From an uncultured Planctomycetia bacterium (GTDB taxonomy: Bacteria; Planctomycetota; MHYJ01; WSZJ01; CAZYRM01): a stretch of DNA of 21,703 bases. Of the stretch, positions 14,203-21,703 are shown piece after piece. Position 1 is the first letter of the stretch, and each line of letters begins with the position of its first letter. Below the pieces are notes generated by a model. The model did no database searches. It was not told where the DNA came from and saw only the letters and a list, made by a program, of their open reading frames with translations. The stretch spans positions 1-21,703 of the forward strand of contig CAZYRM010000110.1 in assembly GCA_964649705.1 (NCBI GenBank), read 5' to 3'. The translations under genes and the position numbers were made by a program.

Positions 14203-14237
14203 CTGGGAGGGGCTGCAGGGGTCACGGCCCCTCCCAG
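14203..14237. terminator. Perfect 11-bp inverted repeat hairpin (ctgggaggggc-N13-gcccctcccag) downstream of the GNAT gene and upstream of the toxin-antitoxin operon
   Basis: The stem and 13-nt loop can be read directly from the sequence. There is no U-tract, so it could be an intrinsic-terminator-like structure of a high-GC genome or an operator for the downstream toxin-antitoxin promoter. Confidence 0.35.
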
Positions 14238-14306
14238 GTCGCGCGCGCGTGGATGACCTTGGCGGCTCGCGGCCGCGGCTGTAAGATGCAGGCAAAGGAG
14301 GAGCCC

Positions 14307-14504
14307 ATGAATCCCTGGATCATAGAAGAACGCCGCCTCCTGGTGTGTCCGCCCAGCCAGAGGATTACAGTACGGATCGCGCCTGCCACCCCGACGCCGG
14401 AGTCGCGCCATCCCCTTTGTGGCGCCTGGGCGGATGAGCGCCCCGTAGAGGAGATCATCGAGTCGCTCAGGTCGCTGCGACGCCGCCTCTCGGGAGCTCG
14501 GTGA
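14307..14504 (+). CDS. Putative type II antitoxin (VapB-like partner of the downstream PIN toxin), 65 aa
   Basis: AAGGAGGAG SD sequence lies 5 nt upstream of ATG 14307. It is a small protein (MNPWIIEERRLLV…CGAWADERPVEEIIESLRSLRRR). Its stop is 7 nt before the PIN gene start. The assignment rests mainly on position and size, so it is weakly supported. Confidence 0.5.
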   Translation: MNPWIIEERRLLVCPPSQRITVRIAPATPTPESRHPLCGAWADERPVEEIIESLRSLRRRLSGAR

Positions 14505-14510
14505 ACGCCC

Positions 14511-14921
14511 TTGAAGTACCTCTGGGACACGAACACCCTAATCTACTGGCTGAACGGCGACACCCGCGTCGAGGCCCTCCGCCTGCAACGTGGGTCCGAC
14601 AACATCGGCCTGTGCTGGCCGGTTGTCCTGGAATTGGTCCTGTGCACCAGCCAGTCCACGAACGTCGAGCGCAATATCCGGAACGCTGTGGAGGTCATCG
14701 CTGCGTTCCAGCCTATCCTCGAGTCTGACGGCGCCGTGATGGACCGTTTCTGCGCCTTGCGCGCTCAATTCAAGGCGAAGGCGACCCCGAAGCCCGAGAT
14801 GGACGTGCTAATCGCCGCCCACGCCCTCGTTCACGACCTGACGCTCGTCACCTCCAACGGCGCGGACTTCGAAGGCACCCCAGACCTCCGGATCGAGGAT
14901 TGGAGGTCTAGTTCCCGATGA
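14511..14921 (+). CDS. PIN-domain toxin (VapC-like ribonuclease)
   Basis: A TTG start at 14511 gives (M)KYLWDTNTLIYWL. Conserved acidic residues match a PIN domain (DTN…, VVLELV, LVTSNGADF). Its stop overlaps the ATG of the next gene (ATGA at 14918-14921). Local GC is visibly lower than the surrounding DNA. Confidence 0.75.
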   Translation: MKYLWDTNTLIYWLNGDTRVEALRLQRGSDNIGLCWPVVLELVLCTSQSTNVERNIRNAVEVIAAFQPILESDGAVMDRFCALRAQFKAKATPKPEMDVLIAAHALVHDLTLVTSNGADFEGTPDLRIEDWRSSSR

Positions 14922-15703
14922 CAACGACTTCGCGCGAATACGAGCTCTTCACGCAGATCGTCTACCAGGCGCTGGTGCGCGAGGTCCCCGACACCCGGGT
15001 GGAGCACGACGTCCAACTCTCCGATCCCTCCGGGGTCGAGCACCAGGTGGATGTCTATCTTGAGTTCAAGATCGCCGGACACGTCTACCGGACGATCATC
15101 GAATGCAAGCAGTGGACGCGCATGGTAGACGTGGGACCTGTCACCGACTTCTACGGCCTGATCCAGTCCCTGGGCGTCGAGAAGGGGATCATGGTCTCCA
15201 AGCTGGGCTTCAGCGATCCGGCGAGGGAATTCGCGCACGCCAGGGGGATCGACCTCGTCCAACTTCGGAAGCCTAGCGAGGAGGACTTGGAGAGACGCAT
15301 CAAGAGGATGGTCGTCCGTGTCAGCTTCTACATCCCCGAAATCGCCGACGTTGCCCTCGAACCGGCGACGGCTGCAGTGTCGTCTCGGGATCTAGCCGTG
15401 AACACGGGCGAGGCCAGGATTGTGGATGCGGGGTCGGGGCGGGAGGAGACCTTGCAGTCCGTCCTGCAACGAACCCTGCCCAAGGGTTGGCCAGAGGACT
15501 GGCAGACTGTGACGATTCCTCTCGGCGCTGGAACTGTTCTGGCGGTGGGTGGCGAGCGCATACCCGTCTCCGAGCTGCGGTTCCGTGCGAGGTTTCACCG
15601 GGCCGATGAACAGGTACTCCTCGACGGGGAGGCCATCGTCCGCGCGATCCTGCGCGATGTCTTTACCGGCGAGATCCGCACGGTGCGCCGCGTCGGCGCC
15701 TGA
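14918..15703 (+). CDS. Mrr-like restriction endonuclease-fold protein (PD-(D/E)xK nuclease; N-terminal Mrr_cat domain plus an uncharacterised C-terminal domain of about 120 aa)
   Basis: The translation reads YELFTQIVYQAL…HQVDVYLEF…YRTIIECKQWTRMVDVGPVTDFYGLIQSLGVEKGIMVSKLGFSDPAREFA, with a D…E-C-K catalytic triad arrangement. It is translationally coupled to the PIN gene. Stop is TGA at 15701-15703. Confidence 0.72.
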   Translation: MTTTSREYELFTQIVYQALVREVPDTRVEHDVQLSDPSGVEHQVDVYLEFKIAGHVYRTIIECKQWTRMVDVGPVTDFYGLIQSLGVEKGIMVSKLGFSDPAREFAHARGIDLVQLRKPSEEDLERRIKRMVVRVSFYIPEIADVALEPATAAVSSRDLAVNTGEARIVDAGSGREETLQSVLQRTLPKGWPEDWQTVTIPLGAGTVLAVGGERIPVSELRFRARFHRADEQVLLDGEAIVRAILRDVFTGEIRTVRRVGA

Positions 15704-15854: not shown

Positions 15855-18800
15855 TCACTTCCAGCTCAGGATCATGTCGACGAGCTTCCCCAGGACCGGC
15901 ACGTCCTTCACCGCGCCGAGGATGATGTTCTTCCTGGCCGCCTCGTTGAACGGCCCGCCGCCGACGTGCCCCTCGACGTCCTTCACGGCCGCGTCCAGCC
16001 GCTCCTGGGCACCCTGCTTCCCCTCGATCAGGTCCCCCAGCGCCTCCAGCGCGTTCGCCTCCTTGCGGAACCCCTTGTCGACGTAGTCGATCTCGGCCTG
16101 CAGCATCGCCTGGTGCAGCTTCGACATCCCGGGCGCGCTGCCGGCGATGCTGATCATCCCCTGGATCGCGTCTCCATTGTCCGCGTCCCCGCCCTTCACC
16201 CGGTCCCGCGCGTACCGCATGAGCTGGAGCACGCCGTCCAACCGGTTCAGCGACTCCGAGACCTTCTTCAGCGCGTCGGGCGTCTCGCTCTCTACGCCCG
16301 TCAGGATGCCCGAGAGCTCGCCATACTCGCCCGCCGAGCCCGCCGCGTTCGCCGTCGCCTGGACTCGGTTGCGCCACCAGGTGATCGTGTCCTTCGTCAC
16401 CGGGACGCCCGAGTCGAGCACCGCCGTCCGCGCGCCGACCAGCTCCGCGTGGATCGCCTTGAGCCTCTCCTGGTTCGCCGCGGGGTCCTTCGCGAGTTCC
16501 TCGACCTGTCGAAGCGCCTCGTCCACGCGCAGCCGGTGGACCTGCATCTCGACGGCCGCCTCCACGTGGCGGCAGGCGACCTCGGTCGCGGGGGTAGAGA
16601 CGTGCGCCCCCTTGAGCAGCGTGCGCATGACGCCGATCTGCACGCGCGCGTCGAGGTCCGTCGTCGCGGCGCGCACCTGCTCGAGGATCGCCGCCAGCTT
16701 CCCGAGGAGCTCGTCCTCGCCCGCCTTCTTCCCCTCCTCGTCAGGGACGTAGAGCGGGACGTCGATCTCGCAGACGTTGTTCCCCTCGTCCATCTCCTCC
16801 AGCTTCCCGTCGGCGTCGATCCTGGCCGAGAGCCGCGTGTCGCCCATCTCCAGCGTCCACGACATCGCGTACTTGTTCATGTACCAGTCCTGCACGACCT
16901 TCGGCCTCGCCTCGAACGTCTTCCACTCGCCGGGGCGCCATCCGTCGGCGCCGAAGAGCCTCACGTCGATGGTCCGCTTCCCCTCGCCGCTCTGCGGGTT
17001 CAAGACCGAGAAGCGGACGGAGAGCACGCCGCCCTTCTCCACGGCCTTCCCGACGTTCCGGGCGCGGAGCGTCAGCGTCGTCTCCTCGCCCGGTCTCGGC
17101 ACGGAGGGCTCCACGACGAGCTCCGCGGCGACGAGGTCGGGCTTGTCCTTCTTCGGGGGCACGAGGAACGCCAGCGGGAAGGTCATCGACGCGCGGGCCT
17201 TGTCCACCCGCAGCCGGAGCGTCACCGTTCCCTCGGCGATCTTCTCCAATGGGATCAGCTTCCCCGTCGCGAGCCCCTCGCCCTCCCCCTCGACCGGCAG
17301 GGGCGCGCTGACGACGACCCCGTCCTCGTCGAGCATCCCGACCTCCCCGGCGATCGGCGCGAAGCCGGGAATTCGGACCTCGGCCTCGGGGAAGAGGGTG
17401 GAGAGGGTGATCGAGATGGCCACGCCGCCGATGGCGCCCGCGAGGCTGCCGTCGGTGCCCTGGCTCGTGCGGTACTTCACCTGGAAAGGGAGCCTCAGGG
17501 CGTTGTCGACGATCTCTCCCTCCTTGGGGACAACCGTGCATCGGAGCGTCGCCCAGGCGGAGCGGTCGCCGATGGTCAGCACGCGCGTCTGCGCCCCCGC
17601 GATCGCGCCGAAGCGGCGGAACTCGAGGTCCTCGAGCGCGAAATCGGCGATCGGGTTTCCCGCGCGCTTCCTCAGCTTCCCCTCGCCGTCGTGGAAGTCG
17701 AGTCCCAGGCCTTCGGTGACCCAGGTCAGCGTGTCGCCGGAGGCGTCGTTCCAGAGCTCATCGGCGATGCGCGTGATCCACGCCGTGCCGCAGATCCGGC
17801 CCTCCTCGGGGGTCCGCGGGAGGCGGAAGATCAGCGACCAGATGTTGTCCTCCTCGTCCAACCCGAGGACGCGGTCACGGACGCCGCGTGCCTGGTTGGC
17901 GCGGGCCGCCATCCACGGCGGTGCGTCCTCGCCGGCGGCCTCCATCACGATGTGCGGGCCCCACTCGGACGGCGCGCGGGCCAGGATGCGGAGGCGCGTG
18001 ATCGCGGAGGAGGGGGCGCGATCGGCGCCCAGGCCGAGGAGGGGAGAGGCGAACCCGAGGCGGCCGAGGATGACGGAGGCGTGCCAGCGCGTCTCCGCGT
18101 CGTCGGAGGCGAGGGCGTCACGGAGCGCCTGGAGTGCACTTGCGTCGCCCCTCCGCGCGAGCACCCCGAGCAGGTAGAGGACCACGCCGGGTCCAGGTTT
18201 CCTTTCAAGGGCGGCCATCAAGGGGTCGGGCGTGCCCTCAATTAGCAACCTGGGCCTGGCCAGGGCCCCCTCGGTCGCCAGGCGGAAGATCGCGGCGGCC
18301 GCGGCCGAAGCGACCTCTTTGTCCTCCGAGGCCGTCAATCCGAAGAGCTTGGGAAGGTCCTCTCGCGTCGCGAGGGACTCCAGCGCCCCGAGCGCGACGT
18401 CGGGCCGCTCCGAGCGGGGGGCTTCCTCCGCGAGGACTGGCCAGGCGTCGTGCGCGCGCACGGTCTCAAGACCGGCGTACGCACCGAAGCACGAGTCGCC
18501 CCGAAGGAGTGCCACGAGGTGTTCGCGCATCGTCCCGGGGAGCGCCCGTCGGGGGGGCGGGCCGCCGAATCCAAGGGCCGAGAGCAGGCGGTGGACCTCT
18601 TCGTCGTCGTCGGGGCGGCCGGTGATCTCGGCGCGCAGCTCCTCCGCGGCCCCGACGGCGCCCTCGCTGTCGGCGATGGCGCGCTCGGCGCGCTCGAGAA
18701 CTGCGCGGCGGCGGCGCTCCTCCGCCTGGCCGGCGGCGGCGAGGAGCGGGTCGCGCACGGAGGCCTCGGCGTCCCGCGCCAGCGCCTGCAGAATCCGCGC

Positions 18801-19616
18801 CTCGAGGCCCGGGTCGCCCGCCTCGCGGGCGTCGAGGAGGGCCTGGGGCAGGACGCCGGGCGTACCGCCTGCCTGCGAGAGCAGGAGGCGCGCCTCGGAG
18901 CGTCCCGAGGCGCAGCCGCGTCCGTCGAAGAAGGCGAGCGCCTTTTCCAGCGAGGCGCGGATGGCGGTCGTGTCGGCCGCGTGCGCGTCGAGGCGGAGGC
19001 GCGCCGAGCGGAGGCGCAGCGTAGCGGGCGTCAGGGAGAGCCCGGCCTTCTCGGCCGCCTCGATGGCGGAGTCGAGCGTGTCGGCCGCGGCGACGAGGTC
19101 GAGCCCGCCCTCCTGCAGCGAGGCGGCGGCGATGGCGTCCAGCAGATCGAAGGCGATTTGGACGTCCCGCTCGAAGAAGAGCTGATCGCCGAGCCACTGG
19201 AAGTCCCGCGCCAGGACGGCCGCGTCGAGCACGTCGACGCCGTCGGGCGCGTTCCCCATCACCTCGAGCTGGACGAGGCACGCGGCCTCCAGGCCCACGT
19301 CGCCGGCCGCGGCGGCCTCCCTGGCGGCCTCGGCCATGAGGCGGCCCGCGAGCATCGGCACGTCCTTCCCCTCGGCGGCCCCCGCGGCCTCGGCCTCGTA
19401 TCGGATTTCGGCGAGGTCGCTCAGGCAGCGCGCGGCCTCGGCGTGGAGCCGGTCACGACGCGCGGCCGCGACGCACAGGCGAAGCGTCTCGGTCGCCTCC
19501 GCGACCTGATGGGCGTCTCTCTGATCGGCGGCGAGTCGTCGCTGATCGCGGATCCACGAGGCGGTGTCGGCGGAGGCGACGACGGTAGCGATGAGGAGGA
19601 CGAGGGCGGTGCGCAT
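15855..19616 (-). CDS. Large secreted protein (1253 aa): signal peptide, Ala/Leu-rich helical region, HEAT/PBS-lyase-like repeats, Ig-like CARDB-type domain, C-terminal helical/coiled-coil region
   Basis: ATG at 19616 has AGGAG about 9 nt upstream and gives the signal peptide MRTALVLLIATVVASA. The track's GTG at 19646 adds 10 aa. HEAT-like repeats are visible (…LYLLGVLARRGDASALQALRDALASDDAETRWHASVILGRLG…). A beta-rich segment reads …PDLVAAELVVEPSVPRPGEETTLTLRARNVGKA…MDEGNNVCEIDVPLYV (CARDB-like). Stop is TGA at 15855-15857. Confidence 0.65.
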   Translation of the reverse strand: MRTALVLLIATVVASADTASWIRDQRRLAADQRDAHQVAEATETLRLCVAAARRDRLHAEAARCLSDLAEIRYEAEAAGAAEGKDVPMLAGRLMAEAAREAAAAGDVGLEAACLVQLEVMGNAPDGVDVLDAAVLARDFQWLGDQLFFERDVQIAFDLLDAIAAASLQEGGLDLVAAADTLDSAIEAAEKAGLSLTPATLRLRSARLRLDAHAADTTAIRASLEKALAFFDGRGCASGRSEARLLLSQAGGTPGVLPQALLDAREAGDPGLEARILQALARDAEASVRDPLLAAAGQAEERRRRAVLERAERAIADSEGAVGAAEELRAEITGRPDDDEEVHRLLSALGFGGPPPRRALPGTMREHLVALLRGDSCFGAYAGLETVRAHDAWPVLAEEAPRSERPDVALGALESLATREDLPKLFGLTASEDKEVASAAAAAIFRLATEGALARPRLLIEGTPDPLMAALERKPGPGVVLYLLGVLARRGDASALQALRDALASDDAETRWHASVILGRLGFASPLLGLGADRAPSSAITRLRILARAPSEWGPHIVMEAAGEDAPPWMAARANQARGVRDRVLGLDEEDNIWSLIFRLPRTPEEGRICGTAWITRIADELWNDASGDTLTWVTEGLGLDFHDGEGKLRKRAGNPIADFALEDLEFRRFGAIAGAQTRVLTIGDRSAWATLRCTVVPKEGEIVDNALRLPFQVKYRTSQGTDGSLAGAIGGVAISITLSTLFPEAEVRIPGFAPIAGEVGMLDEDGVVVSAPLPVEGEGEGLATGKLIPLEKIAEGTVTLRLRVDKARASMTFPLAFLVPPKKDKPDLVAAELVVEPSVPRPGEETTLTLRARNVGKAVEKGGVLSVRFSVLNPQSGEGKRTIDVRLFGADGWRPGEWKTFEARPKVVQDWYMNKYAMSWTLEMGDTRLSARIDADGKLEEMDEGNNVCEIDVPLYVPDEEGKKAGEDELLGKLAAILEQVRAATTDLDARVQIGVMRTLLKGAHVSTPATEVACRHVEAAVEMQVHRLRVDEALRQVEELAKDPAANQERLKAIHAELVGARTAVLDSGVPVTKDTITWWRNRVQATANAAGSAGEYGELSGILTGVESETPDALKKVSESLNRLDGVLQLMRYARDRVKGGDADNGDAIQGMISIAGSAPGMSKLHQAMLQAEIDYVDKGFRKEANALEALGDLIEGKQGAQERLDAAVKDVEGHVGGGPFNEAARKNIILGAVKDVPVLGKLVDMILSWK

Positions 19617-19729
19617 GGCGGGGCTCCTGTTGAGGTCGAGGTGCACGGTCTACCGTGCGCGGGCGCGGAGGTCAACGCGAATCAGGCATCGCGCGCCTCG
19701 CCCCGATCGAGGCCCTGCGGCCGTGTCGC

Positions 19730-21586
19730 TCACGCCTCTTCCACGGCCGCGAGCAGTTCGCCCGCGTTGGCGGGGCGGCGGTCGCTCCTTGGCGAGAGCG
19801 ACCGCTGCACGGCGAGCCTGAGCCGTTCGGGGATCCCGTCCGCGAGCGGCTCGAAGGCCCCGATCGGCGGCTCCCCGGTGAGCATCTCATACAGCACCAC
19901 GCCCGCCGCGAAGACGTCCGTCCGCGCGTCCAACTCCCCTCCGGCGCGCACCTGCTCCGGCGCCATGTAGTGCGGCGTTCCGGCGCCGGTCAGGAGCGAC
20001 CTCATTCCATCCAGACCTATCGCGCGCGCCAGGCCGAGGTCCGCGAGCTTCACCTCGCCGTTCTTCCCGAGCAGGATGTTCTCCGGCTTCACGTCGAGGT
20101 GCAGGACGCCCTTCGTGTGGGCGTGCGCAAGCCCGGTGAGGAACCCGCGCGCGATCGACAGGGCCTCCGCCAGCGGGATCGCGCCGCGGGCAAGCCGCGC
20201 GCGCATCGTCGTCCCCTCCACCAGCTCCATGTGGAGGTAGGGTCTCCCGTTCGCGTCGCCGACGTCATGGACACGCACGATGTTCGGGTGCGTCAGTTCC
20301 ATCGCGAGGTTCACCTCCTTGCCGAAGCGGCCCCGCGCCGCACCGTCCTGGAGGAGCGCCCGCGTGAGGACCTTCAGGGCCACCTCCTTGTCCCGCCTCC
20401 GGTCTCGGACCCGGTACACCTCCCCCATGCCGCCGATCCCCAGCAGCTCGATCACCTCGAATCGCCCGTCGAACGCCTCGCCGACCTCCAGCGGTCGCGC
20501 CACGCCGAGCCGCTCGTGAGTCGCCGCGAGGAGGCTGTGCCGCACGGCCGCGGAGTCCGTCAACGCCTTGCAGGACGCTTCCAGCGCGAGAGGCTTGCCG
20601 GCGACGACTGACTCCGCCAGCTCGCGGAGGACCTTCTCCAGCGACCCGCGCTCCGGTGGCGTCATTCGGGAGAGGGCACCCCGCACGGCCGCCTGGATCC
20701 CCGCGACGGAGAGTCCCCGCAAGGCGCGCGACCGGTCCGGGTCGCCCCCGCTCGCCCCTTCCAGGAGCGCGTCTACCCAGCGATCGAGCTCGTCGAAGTT
20801 GACGTCGACGCGGTCCTGGAGGCCGGCCGTAATCCGCGCGATCGGCTCCGCGAGGTGCGGCGCAGCCTGGGCGATGCCCTGAAGCGCGGCACCGAACGCA
20901 CGCAGCGGGATCCCGCCGCAGCCGTCCGAGTCGGCCTCCGTCGGTGACGGGGACGACTTCCTTCGGAGCATCACTTCCAGGGCTGCGCCGAACACCCAGG
21001 ACTTCTTCCCCTTGAAGGCTCGCAAGGGAGCGGCCCGGTCCGCCTCGGCGCGGACGATCGTGAAGCTGACGAGCTTGAGGCCGAGCGCGGCGAGGTCCGG
21101 CTCGGACGCCTCGCGGACGCGGGCCGCAAGGCCCTCACGATCGTCGCAGACCTGCGCAGCCGTGGAGCGGGCGGCAAGACCGAGGAGATGCGGTGCGAGG
21201 ATGCGCTCCGCGACTCCCATCACTTCGCTCGGGAGTGTTCCGACGAACACCTCGGCGGCGCGGGCGATCATCGGCTCGGTCGAGTCCACTTTGACCTCGG
21301 CGTGCGCATCCAGGCTCACGGGGCAGCCGTCGAGGGCGATCACCGGGTGAGACGGGATGGGGACGGCGACGAGGTCCAGGGAGACGACGTCCACCCTCTC
21401 GAGGATAGGCCAGATGAACGCGCCCCCGTGTACCACGATGCGTCGTCCCGAGGGCCCGCCGGTGACGACGAGCGCCTCGTTCGGGCGGGCGACCACGCGC
21501 CGAGAGGCGAGGAAGCGGAAAAGGAGGACGACCGCCGCGAGCGCGGCGCCGAGGATCAGCAGCGGGGTGCCCAGGGGACCGGGCAT
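19730..21586 (-). CDS. Membrane-anchored SPFH (band-7/flotillin-like) domain fused to a Hanks-type Ser/Thr protein kinase
   Basis: ATG at 21586 has GGGAGGA 8 nt upstream. An N-terminal TM helix ([15 protein letters not shown]) is followed by the SPFH core ([11 protein letters not shown]…[43 protein letters not shown]). The C-terminal kinase carries [11 protein letters not shown]…[22 protein letters not shown] and GTPHYMAPE. Stop is TGA at 19730-19732. Confidence 0.85.
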
Positions 21587-21703
21587 GGTGCGAGTCCTCC
21601 CGCACGATGATCGCACCGGGCGGTTCGCCGCGCAACGCCGGGATAGTTCTACAACGCTACTCTCCAGCCGAATCGGTGGCGGTGGCGTGCTCGTAATCGG
21701 GCT

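Follow-up and report, generated by a model that had tools for sequence, protein, structure and literature searches.

The subject of this study is a compact three-gene cassette at positions 14244-15703 of a 21,703-nt stretch of contig CAZYRM010000110.1 from an uncultured Planctomycetia bacterium (the window, meaning the whole stretch of DNA that was analysed), in which a 65-aa protein (gene 1), a VapC-type PIN protein (gene 2) and a two-domain Mrr-like nuclease (gene 3) are encoded in tight succession on the plus strand. We found this trio to be kept together in very distant bacteria, which makes it probable that the three genes form a single defence or addiction unit, not described before, and are not neighbours by chance. 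The reading that we favour, tentatively, is that of a horizontally mobile cassette working as one unit, a two-layer module in which a nuclease would be combined with a VapBC-like toxin-antitoxin pair for defence and addiction. A first reading of the same DNA from its letters and open reading frames (ORFs) alone, here called the sequence-only reading, had proposed a tightly packed plus-strand trio with PIN and Mrr_cat domains, and this was borne out by the presence of the ORFs and by Pfam matches above the cut-offs.

Conservation of the three-gene cassette

A second copy of the cassette, at locus L001, carried all three genes with the same spacing, encoded proteins 77-85% identical to those of the window (nuclease P0002), and had a gene for a TPR protein as its left neighbour, unlike the window. 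The two copies shared 82% DNA identity over 14244-15678, and from this comparison we calculated ratios of nonsynonymous to synonymous substitution rates (dN/dS) of 0.115 for the small ORF, 0.166 for the PIN gene and 0.165 for the nuclease gene, with the differences concentrated at third codon positions. For the small ORF, the substitutions numbered 7/4/25 at codon positions 1/2/3, and its other two frames gave a dN/dS of ~2. All three ORFs are thereby marked as genuine genes that evolve under purifying selection.

A far more diverged version, at locus L097, encoded a 261-aa nuclease (P0006, 30-32% identical), a 134-aa PIN protein (35% identical) and a 64-aa ORF (38% identical) that shares the pattern M-P-I-E...ITxR...PLCGxWxDxRxxEEI with the small protein of the window. 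At this locus the stop codon of the small ORF overlaps the GTG start of the PIN gene, which in turn shares 8 nt with the nuclease gene. The nuclease P0003 was found at L096, a short contig of 33% GC. This contig opens within a gene that stops a few bases short of the nuclease ATG, and the product of that gene has a VapC C-terminus, ...FDILIAA...LTLVTNNQKHF...LENWKMS. The sequence-only reading had said that homologous loci never keeping the three genes together would speak against it; the genes were found together in L001 and L097, and L096 holds the VapC C-terminus with the nuclease.

The four nucleases of these loci (P0001 of the window, P0002, P0003 and P0006) were each other's best matches, forming one branch of a much larger family. 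A PIN gene lay upstream in 4/4 loci of the branch as against 0/81 loci outside it (77 GTDB loci plus 4 close representatives): none adjoined the nuclease in any of the 77 GTDB family loci, and none lay upstream of the close representatives P0004, P0005, P0009 and P0010. Because all four members of the branch are PIN-linked and none outside is, we regard the trio as a module of this one branch. All members other than that of the window were singletons in a collection of ~15 billion proteins, and further scans of JGI metagenomes, viral contigs and plasmids returned no additional module members.

The cassette occupied three different contexts, with GNAT, TPR and glycosyltransferase/LPG synthase neighbours, respectively. 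In the window its GC content was 63.8%, compared with 70.8% for the remaining sequence; windows of the same size elsewhere had a mean of 70.9% (sd 1.7, minimum 66.8), which puts the cassette ~4 sd lower. In L097 (2780-4189), the cassette had 42.9% GC between flanks of 62-63%, a drop of ~20 points, and lay between genes for a GT2 glycosyltransferase and LPG_synthase_TM with no mobility gene in sight. These three contexts and a GC content foreign to its surroundings (63.8 vs 70.8%; 42.9 vs 62-63%) show that the cassette moves between unrelated genomes. The earlier suggestion that the region was acquired is thus upheld by the low GC in the window, the 20-point drop in L097 and the three genomic contexts, and so is its remark on a lower GC content, although the figure given then, about 60%, was too low.

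Gene 2 encodes a predicted VapC-type PIN ribonuclease

The gene 2 product matched the Pfam family PIN (PF01850) with an E value of 1.9e-10 and 41.8 bits (cut-off 23.6) over residues 4-122, and its best solved relative was the VapC of 6ifc (E 1.7e-11), aligned over residues 1-131. Solved VapC structures can be aligned with the protein from one end to the other, which supports the TTG start codon. Its four acidic residues (Table 1) coincide with the catalytic positions of 6ifc and relatives, and on this match gene 2 is predicted to encode a PIN ribonuclease of the VapC type whose acidic active site is complete. Solved VapC relatives of the tRNA(fMet)-cleaving clade halt translation through cleavage of the initiator tRNA. 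The PIN protein of the window remained below the cut-offs of the tRNA(fMet)-specific VapC models NF047863 and NF010285 (66 vs 140 and 47.9 vs 143 bits), and because it misses the NCBIfam equivalog cut-off, this tRNA target cannot be carried over to it.

Canonical VapC relatives (35-40% identity) were encoded in two-gene pairs with 77-aa MazE or ribbon-helix-helix (RHH) antitoxins and were followed by unrelated genes. Because these relatives are plain two-gene pairs, the third gene and the novel small protein appear to be specific to the module, and we take the small protein and the nuclease to be its joint hallmarks.

Two candidates that came up among related loci were rejected. A 261-aa gene beside a related vapBC (L088) was unrelated to the nuclease, the same length being coincidental, and P0185, which is VapC-like with a local 64%-identical stretch, was discarded as a module PIN on account of a different locus layout with TrmD downstream. 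At its loci (L104:3001-4081 and L105:666-1800), P0185 is a 116-aa VapC-like PIN protein followed by an overlapping gene for a 107-aa protein without a Pfam match, which is overlapped in turn by the gene for the tRNA (m1G37) methyltransferase TrmD, an unrelated arrangement of PIN protein and tRNA enzyme.

Gene 1 encodes a small protein of a new family

Searches with the 65-aa protein returned nothing in Pfam or NCBIfam (E up to 1), PADLOC, PHROGs or PDB sequences (E up to 10), and no MazE/AbrB, RHH, Phd/YefM or helix-turn-helix (HTH) antitoxin domain was recognisable in it by comparison with Pfam, NCBIfam and PDB sequences. The protein was 83% identical to P0152. A word-indexed search of 5.8 billion proteins found only the L001 copy as a relative, and none was found in the viral contigs or plasmids searched. 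A motif scan of JGI metagenomes gave two matches, both of which were false positives within an alpha/beta-hydrolase gene containing GHPLCGAWADE. A degenerate AbrB/MazE or RHH antitoxin was also considered, as MAFFT put the segment ITVRI on the beta-strand of VapB, but hhalign did not support this (probability 0.1 against the MazE-type VapB of a related VapC). By these comparisons the 65-aa protein is a new family, and from its position and size it is most likely a labile antitoxin that would silence the gene 2 product.

Gene callers run on sister contigs of the window miss the 65-aa ORF and instead call an opposite-strand 33-aa ORF just upstream (window 14222-14536, minus strand; L002:3691-3792); the small protein is missing from protein databases because automatic gene calls skip it. 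The start codon also needed revision. The sequence-only reading had begun the region at an in-frame ATG at 14286, which would give 72 aa, but this codon falls within the putative -10 hexamer of the promoter described below and is not supported by the distant homologue in L097, which starts at the position equivalent to 14307; we therefore placed the start at 14307.

Gene 3 encodes a two-domain nuclease

The Pfam family Mrr_cat (PF04471) matched the gene 3 product at an E value of 4.5e-12 over residues 31-115, including the D...(D/E)xK motif, which places the protein within that family. The AlphaFold2 model of the nuclease was confident, with a predicted local distance difference test score (pLDDT) of 93.9 and a predicted template modelling score (pTM) of 0.77. 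Residues ~122-261 had no Pfam match, and the domain that they form had no structural neighbour in the PDB, in agreement with the earlier description of an uncharacterised C-terminal domain. The Pfam run on all three proteins that the sequence-only reading had proposed thus gave matches for PIN and Mrr_cat and none for the small protein or the C-terminal half of the nuclease. When the C-terminal domain was modelled in isolation, its extreme C-terminus differed from that of the full-length model (helix vs strands), and because of this difference the last ~25 residues may pack on the nuclease domain.

The similarity to Pfam NA-iREase1, a NACHT-associated inactive restriction endonuclease, stayed at 17 bits (cut-off 27), and the catalytic residues of the window nuclease were intact. 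Against PADLOC, the nuclease reached only an E value of ~0.01, to PD_DExK, mREase_IV and PDC-S02. At its (D/E)xK motif the L097 nuclease (P0006, L097:3404-4189) reads S-C-K rather than E-C-K; S-A-K takes this place in a few further members of the family. In such S-x-K members the family-invariant E9 might supply the missing acid. Enzymes of the Cfr10I/NgoMIV type offer a parallel for a missing acid that is supplied elsewhere.

The wider nuclease family

An exhaustive HMMER search of 1.84 billion representative proteins with the nuclease yielded 3461 matches with E values up to 1e-3, of which 676 reached 1e-10 or lower. Many of the matched proteins were 260-300 aa long and aligned across both domains. 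Conserved throughout the family were E9, D45, K64, the linker LRxPxxxDWxGR and the C-terminal DGE...AIxKD...G. We located 271 family loci in GTDB genomes, mostly in Bacteroidota, with others in Proteobacteria, Paenibacillus, Acidobacteriota and further groups, and found homologues on plasmids, conjugative ones included, which are annotated merely as 'restriction endonuclease'. The SPbeta-like temperate Bacillus phage phi3T and its hybrids encode phi3T_78 (L101:3902-4855; KY030782.1 63483-64436), a full-length homologue annotated as hypothetical, which spans both domains at ~25% identity and matches Mrr_cat with an E value of 1.6e-12. The claim of a non-canonical trio was supported for the arrangement of the genes, whereas the two-domain nuclease is not peculiar to the locus and belongs to a large family that is normally without a PIN partner.

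When the neighbours at the 77 GTDB loci were clustered, no partner proved to be widespread, and the groups that formed were small and came from closely related genomes. Among the 25 commonest families listed, not one (methyltransferases included) had matches to more than 3 of the 105 neighbours at these loci. Immediate neighbours of family members often matched defence models, among them AbiH, Shedu SduA, DRT (defence reverse transcriptase), SIR2, AbiEi, PD-T7-5, GmrSD and a Type I S subunit; several candidate systems of PADLOC were matched as well. Across the family itself, PADLOC matches were confined to the catalytic core domain and were weak for mREase_IV. Judged by this association, the wider family looks like a stand-alone defence nuclease without a partner methyltransferase or a known reader domain.

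Two groups of neighbours deserve mention. P0009, a member of the main clade that is 34% identical to the window nuclease (Logan SRR18572989, L107:642-1454), has the gene for a HEPN-domain protein (L107:1-639) 2 nt upstream on the same strand; this neighbour is at least 212 aa long, and its HEPN match (PF05168) is borderline, at 22.8 bits vs a cut-off of 22, in this one locus. There is a hint here that the nuclease family may pair recurrently with RNase-toxin folds (PIN, HEPN). Five loci from Bacteroidales/Prolixibacteraceae (L048, L056, L063, L069 and L081) have a common upstream gene of ~121 aa, with a product beginning MKTAIITIGNG..., which lies 36-56 nt before the nuclease gene in 4/5 loci; in L056, the upstream ORF is 62 aa long and 151 nt away. 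This gene may be a lineage-specific partner or may merely reflect closely related genomes.

Organisation and flanks of the locus

The three plus-strand ORFs lie between the end of a GNAT acetyltransferase gene (14156, plus strand) and the end of a gene for a 1253-aa protein (15855, minus strand), so that the flanks converge on the cassette as the sequence-only reading had described. The ATGA overlap that it reported is real, the perfect hairpin ahead of the cassette was confirmed, and the 65-aa ORF upstream of the TTG codon exists, separated from it by a gap one nucleotide shorter than the 7 nt given then (Table 1).

Table 1. Positions of the genes, protein domains and signals of the cassette in the window
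Feature	Positions	Strand	Description
Gene 1, 65-aa antitoxin-like protein	14307-14504	+	65 aa; ATG start; ribosome-binding site AGGAGG at 14296-14301; conserved motif PLCGxWxDxRxxEEI
Gene 2, VapC-type PIN protein (predicted)	14511-14921	+	136 aa; TTG start, 6 nt past the gene 1 stop (14502-14504); acidic D6, E41, D98 and D119 present
Gene 3, nuclease	14918-15703	+	261 aa; ATG shared with the gene 2 stop as ATGA (14918-14921)
PD-(D/E)xK (Mrr_cat) nuclease domain	14918-15280	+	N-terminal; E9, D45, E62-x-K64
Beta-rich C-terminal domain	15281-15703	+	residues ~122-261; preceded by linker LRxPxxxDWxGR; ends with conserved DGE...A-I-x-K-D...G
Hairpin	14203-14237	+	perfect 11-bp stem, 13-nt loop, 47 nt past the GNAT stop codon
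Putative promoter	14259-14287	+	TTGGCG (14259-14264), 17-nt spacer, TAAGAT (14282-14287)

In the hairpin, the stem CTGGGAGGGGC at 14203-14213 pairs with 14227-14237, as found by an inverted-repeat search, and folding gave -36.9 kcal/mol (z = -2.4). No T-run was seen at 14203-14237; the structure is probably the terminator of the upstream GNAT gene. Because the similarity to L001 begins only at 14244, just past the hairpin, we assign it to the host flank, where it marks the predicted left edge of the cassette. The putative promoter matches 8/12 consensus positions, and L001 has TTGGCG-17-TATCAT at the same place. Within its spacer lies a perfect 10-bp palindrome, CGCGGCCGCG, at 14268-14277, which is not kept in L001 and for that reason is probably no operator. 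RNA scans of the sequence found no Rfam family, no tRNA and no ToxI-like repeats or repeat array.

On the far side of the cassette, the 1253-aa protein (15855-19646, minus strand) gave weak HEAT and CARDB matches only, and beyond it lies a gene for a fusion of Band_7 with a Ser/Thr protein kinase (19730-21616, minus strand). No methyltransferase gene stands beside the nuclease gene, the cassette consisting of three genes between those for the GNAT and HEAT/CARDB proteins.

Comparison with known systems

We compared the cassette with systems that share one or more of its features. Its PIN protein aligns over the full length with the VapBC tRNA(fMet) clade (Shigella/Salmonella MvpT/VapC and Leptospira VapC; 6ifc, 3tnd, 5ecw) and shares with it the four acidic active-site residues, a C-terminal ...IEDW ending and a small gene directly upstream. 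Unlike in that clade, however, the upstream protein has 65 aa and no relation to the VapB proteins of the relatives, which are of the MazE/AbrB or RHH type and 75-77 aa long; an extra, translationally coupled nuclease gene is present, and the tRNA substrate cannot be transferred (66 vs 140 bits). The nuclease departs from Mrr-type and modification-dependent Type IV enzymes (E. coli Mrr, AF1548 and the catalytic domains of MspJI/AspBHI) in its reversed domain order, the N-terminal half being the catalytic one, and in having a beta-rich C-terminal domain but neither an Mrr_N winged helix nor SRA nor any other known reader; it is thus not an Mrr-type Type IV enzyme. Nor does the cassette resemble a restriction-modification system, as it comes without a cognate methyltransferase.

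The nearest known precedent in function is PrrC-EcoprrI, in which, as in RloC, a tRNA anticodon nuclease is embedded in a DNA restriction system, which keeps PrrC latent. The logic of the cassette may match that of PrrC-EcoprrI, with an RNase toxin linked to a restriction-type nuclease and a direct first line backed by a suicidal second one. The two systems have no homologous component: the PIN protein has a small partner of its own, where PrrC is an ABC-ATPase-fused anticodon nuclease, and a single small DNA nuclease stands in the place of a Type I enzyme; the regulatory contact in the cassette is hypothetical. Like the cassette, TAC (toxin-antitoxin-SecB-like chaperone) and PaaR-PaaA-ParE consist of three co-directional, tightly spaced genes around a type II pair, but the third gene here encodes a nuclease with an intact active site and not a chaperone or a transcriptional regulator.

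The defence-database check proposed by the sequence-only reading came back empty, in that PADLOC gave no significant match for any of the three proteins: in PADLOC-DB 2.0.0 the small protein and the PIN protein were unmatched, and no model covers the proteins of the window. Full-text searches of the literature found no three-gene system of VapC with an Mrr-type or other restriction endonuclease and nothing relevant on phi3T_78.

Proposed function and alternative explanations

If the cassette does work as one unit, a promoter of its own would drive one mRNA for all three genes, with translation coupled between them. The 65-aa protein would bind and silence the VapC-type PIN protein, while the nuclease would cut the incoming DNA of mobile genetic elements and its C-terminal domain would select the nucleic-acid target or mediate assembly. 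Growth arrest by VapC, a form of abortive infection, would then serve as a back-up once the nuclease layer fails or the antitoxin decays, and the VapBC-like pair would also stabilise the cassette by post-segregational killing. Because the tight coupling of the genes persists, the data suggest a functional, and perhaps also a physical, link between the nuclease and the toxin-antitoxin pair.

Several observations weigh against this two-layer module. Only four loci from three lineages are known, so the conservation statistics are thin, and the PIN proteins of the module are ~34-38% identical to each other and to ordinary VapCs alike. The nuclease evidently needs no VapBC for activity, because family members outside the branch evidently work without a PIN partner, and the L097 nuclease has a serine at the position of E62. 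As the small protein bears no detectable similarity to antitoxins, its putative antitoxin role is argued from position, size and selection. A strict sigma-70 scan did not call the promoter at 14259-14287, and folding and scanning revealed no significant terminator structure 3' of the cassette; since strict scans back neither signal, co-transcription is something that we only infer. Finally, without a PADLOC match, the assignment to defence is guilt by association.

The cassette could also be an ordinary VapBC-type addiction module that travels with an independent, solitary restriction-like nuclease gene and stabilises it, the linkage persisting only because the two move as one block, without any cooperation. 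Most members of the nuclease family are indeed solitary and have no conserved partner, the relatives of the VapC function as two-gene pairs, and only three lineages are known. Toxin-antitoxin genes are, moreover, commonly found in defence islands. We nevertheless consider such co-travel rather unlikely, as neither the order of the genes nor their overlapping junctions are lost at identities down to ~30% or across hosts of 33%, about 60% and 71% GC, the small-protein family was seen in this module only, and the PIN linkage of the nuclease branch (4/4) is set against 0/81 elsewhere. Less probable again is that the three genes are neighbours by chance or decaying remnants without a current function. 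The rarity of the cassette and the failure of automatic gene calling to find the small ORF would be in keeping with this, yet all reading frames are intact with dN/dS values of 0.12-0.17 in the three genes, the catalytic residues are kept and the same arrangement occurs in independent lineages, so that we give this explanation hardly any credence.

Other alternatives concern how the parts might work together. In a guard-type tripartite complex, the nuclease or its C-terminal domain would act as a sensor, and foreign DNA or a phage anti-restriction protein would free VapC, a scheme reminiscent of PrrC, which the restriction enzyme EcoprrI keeps latent. The translational coupling of the PIN and nuclease genes in 4/4 loci speaks for such a complex, as do a C-terminal domain that is conserved, unassigned and free for protein-protein contacts or ligand sensing, and the fact that P0009 abuts a HEPN-domain protein, another RNase-toxin fold. 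We judge it improbable all the same, given that contact between the nuclease and VapC is hypothetical, that solitary family members conserve the C-terminal domain just as well, so that it did not evolve to bind VapBC, and that the HEPN case is a single borderline locus. The same low expectation applies to this scheme in its full form, in which an unseen sensor fold in the C-terminal domain would be wired to VapC via the new mini-antitoxin, leading to tRNA attack and a growth stop, in a nuclease family that also pairs with HEPN. It might also be that the 65-aa protein is not an antitoxin at all and acts, for example, as a transcriptional regulator, with the PIN protein being controlled in another way, such as by the nuclease or by auto-inhibition. 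The protein is unlike MazE/AbrB, RHH, Phd or HTH antitoxins, and there is a report of PIN-based proteins that act in defence with no cognate antitoxin (PMC13092281). Nonetheless, a gene for a protein of this size (64-65 aa) that directly precedes the toxin gene, overlapping it or ending 6 nt short of it, is the classic type II layout, and the small protein is under strong purifying selection and inherited with the PIN gene, making a role other than that of an antitoxin very unlikely.

Implications

Toxin-antitoxin pairs beside nucleases are not surprising in themselves, and the present arrangement is known from only three lineages. If the linkage is functional, however, a compact three-gene architecture would be added to the immune modules based on toxin-antitoxin pairs, and a new family of antitoxin-like proteins would be defined. 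It would also give a first entry to the function of two-domain restriction-like nucleases, a large and uncharacterised family. This family comprises thousands of sequence clusters and is spread over Bacteroidota, Proteobacteria, Firmicutes, plasmids and phage phi3T; no structural relative of its C-terminal domain is known. The cassette merits experiments because of the conserved trio of genes, the new family of mini-antitoxins and the unrecognised C-terminal fold of this large nuclease family, and, if the proposal is true, it would offer a tractable case for the coupling of DNA-targeting and RNA-targeting layers of defence.

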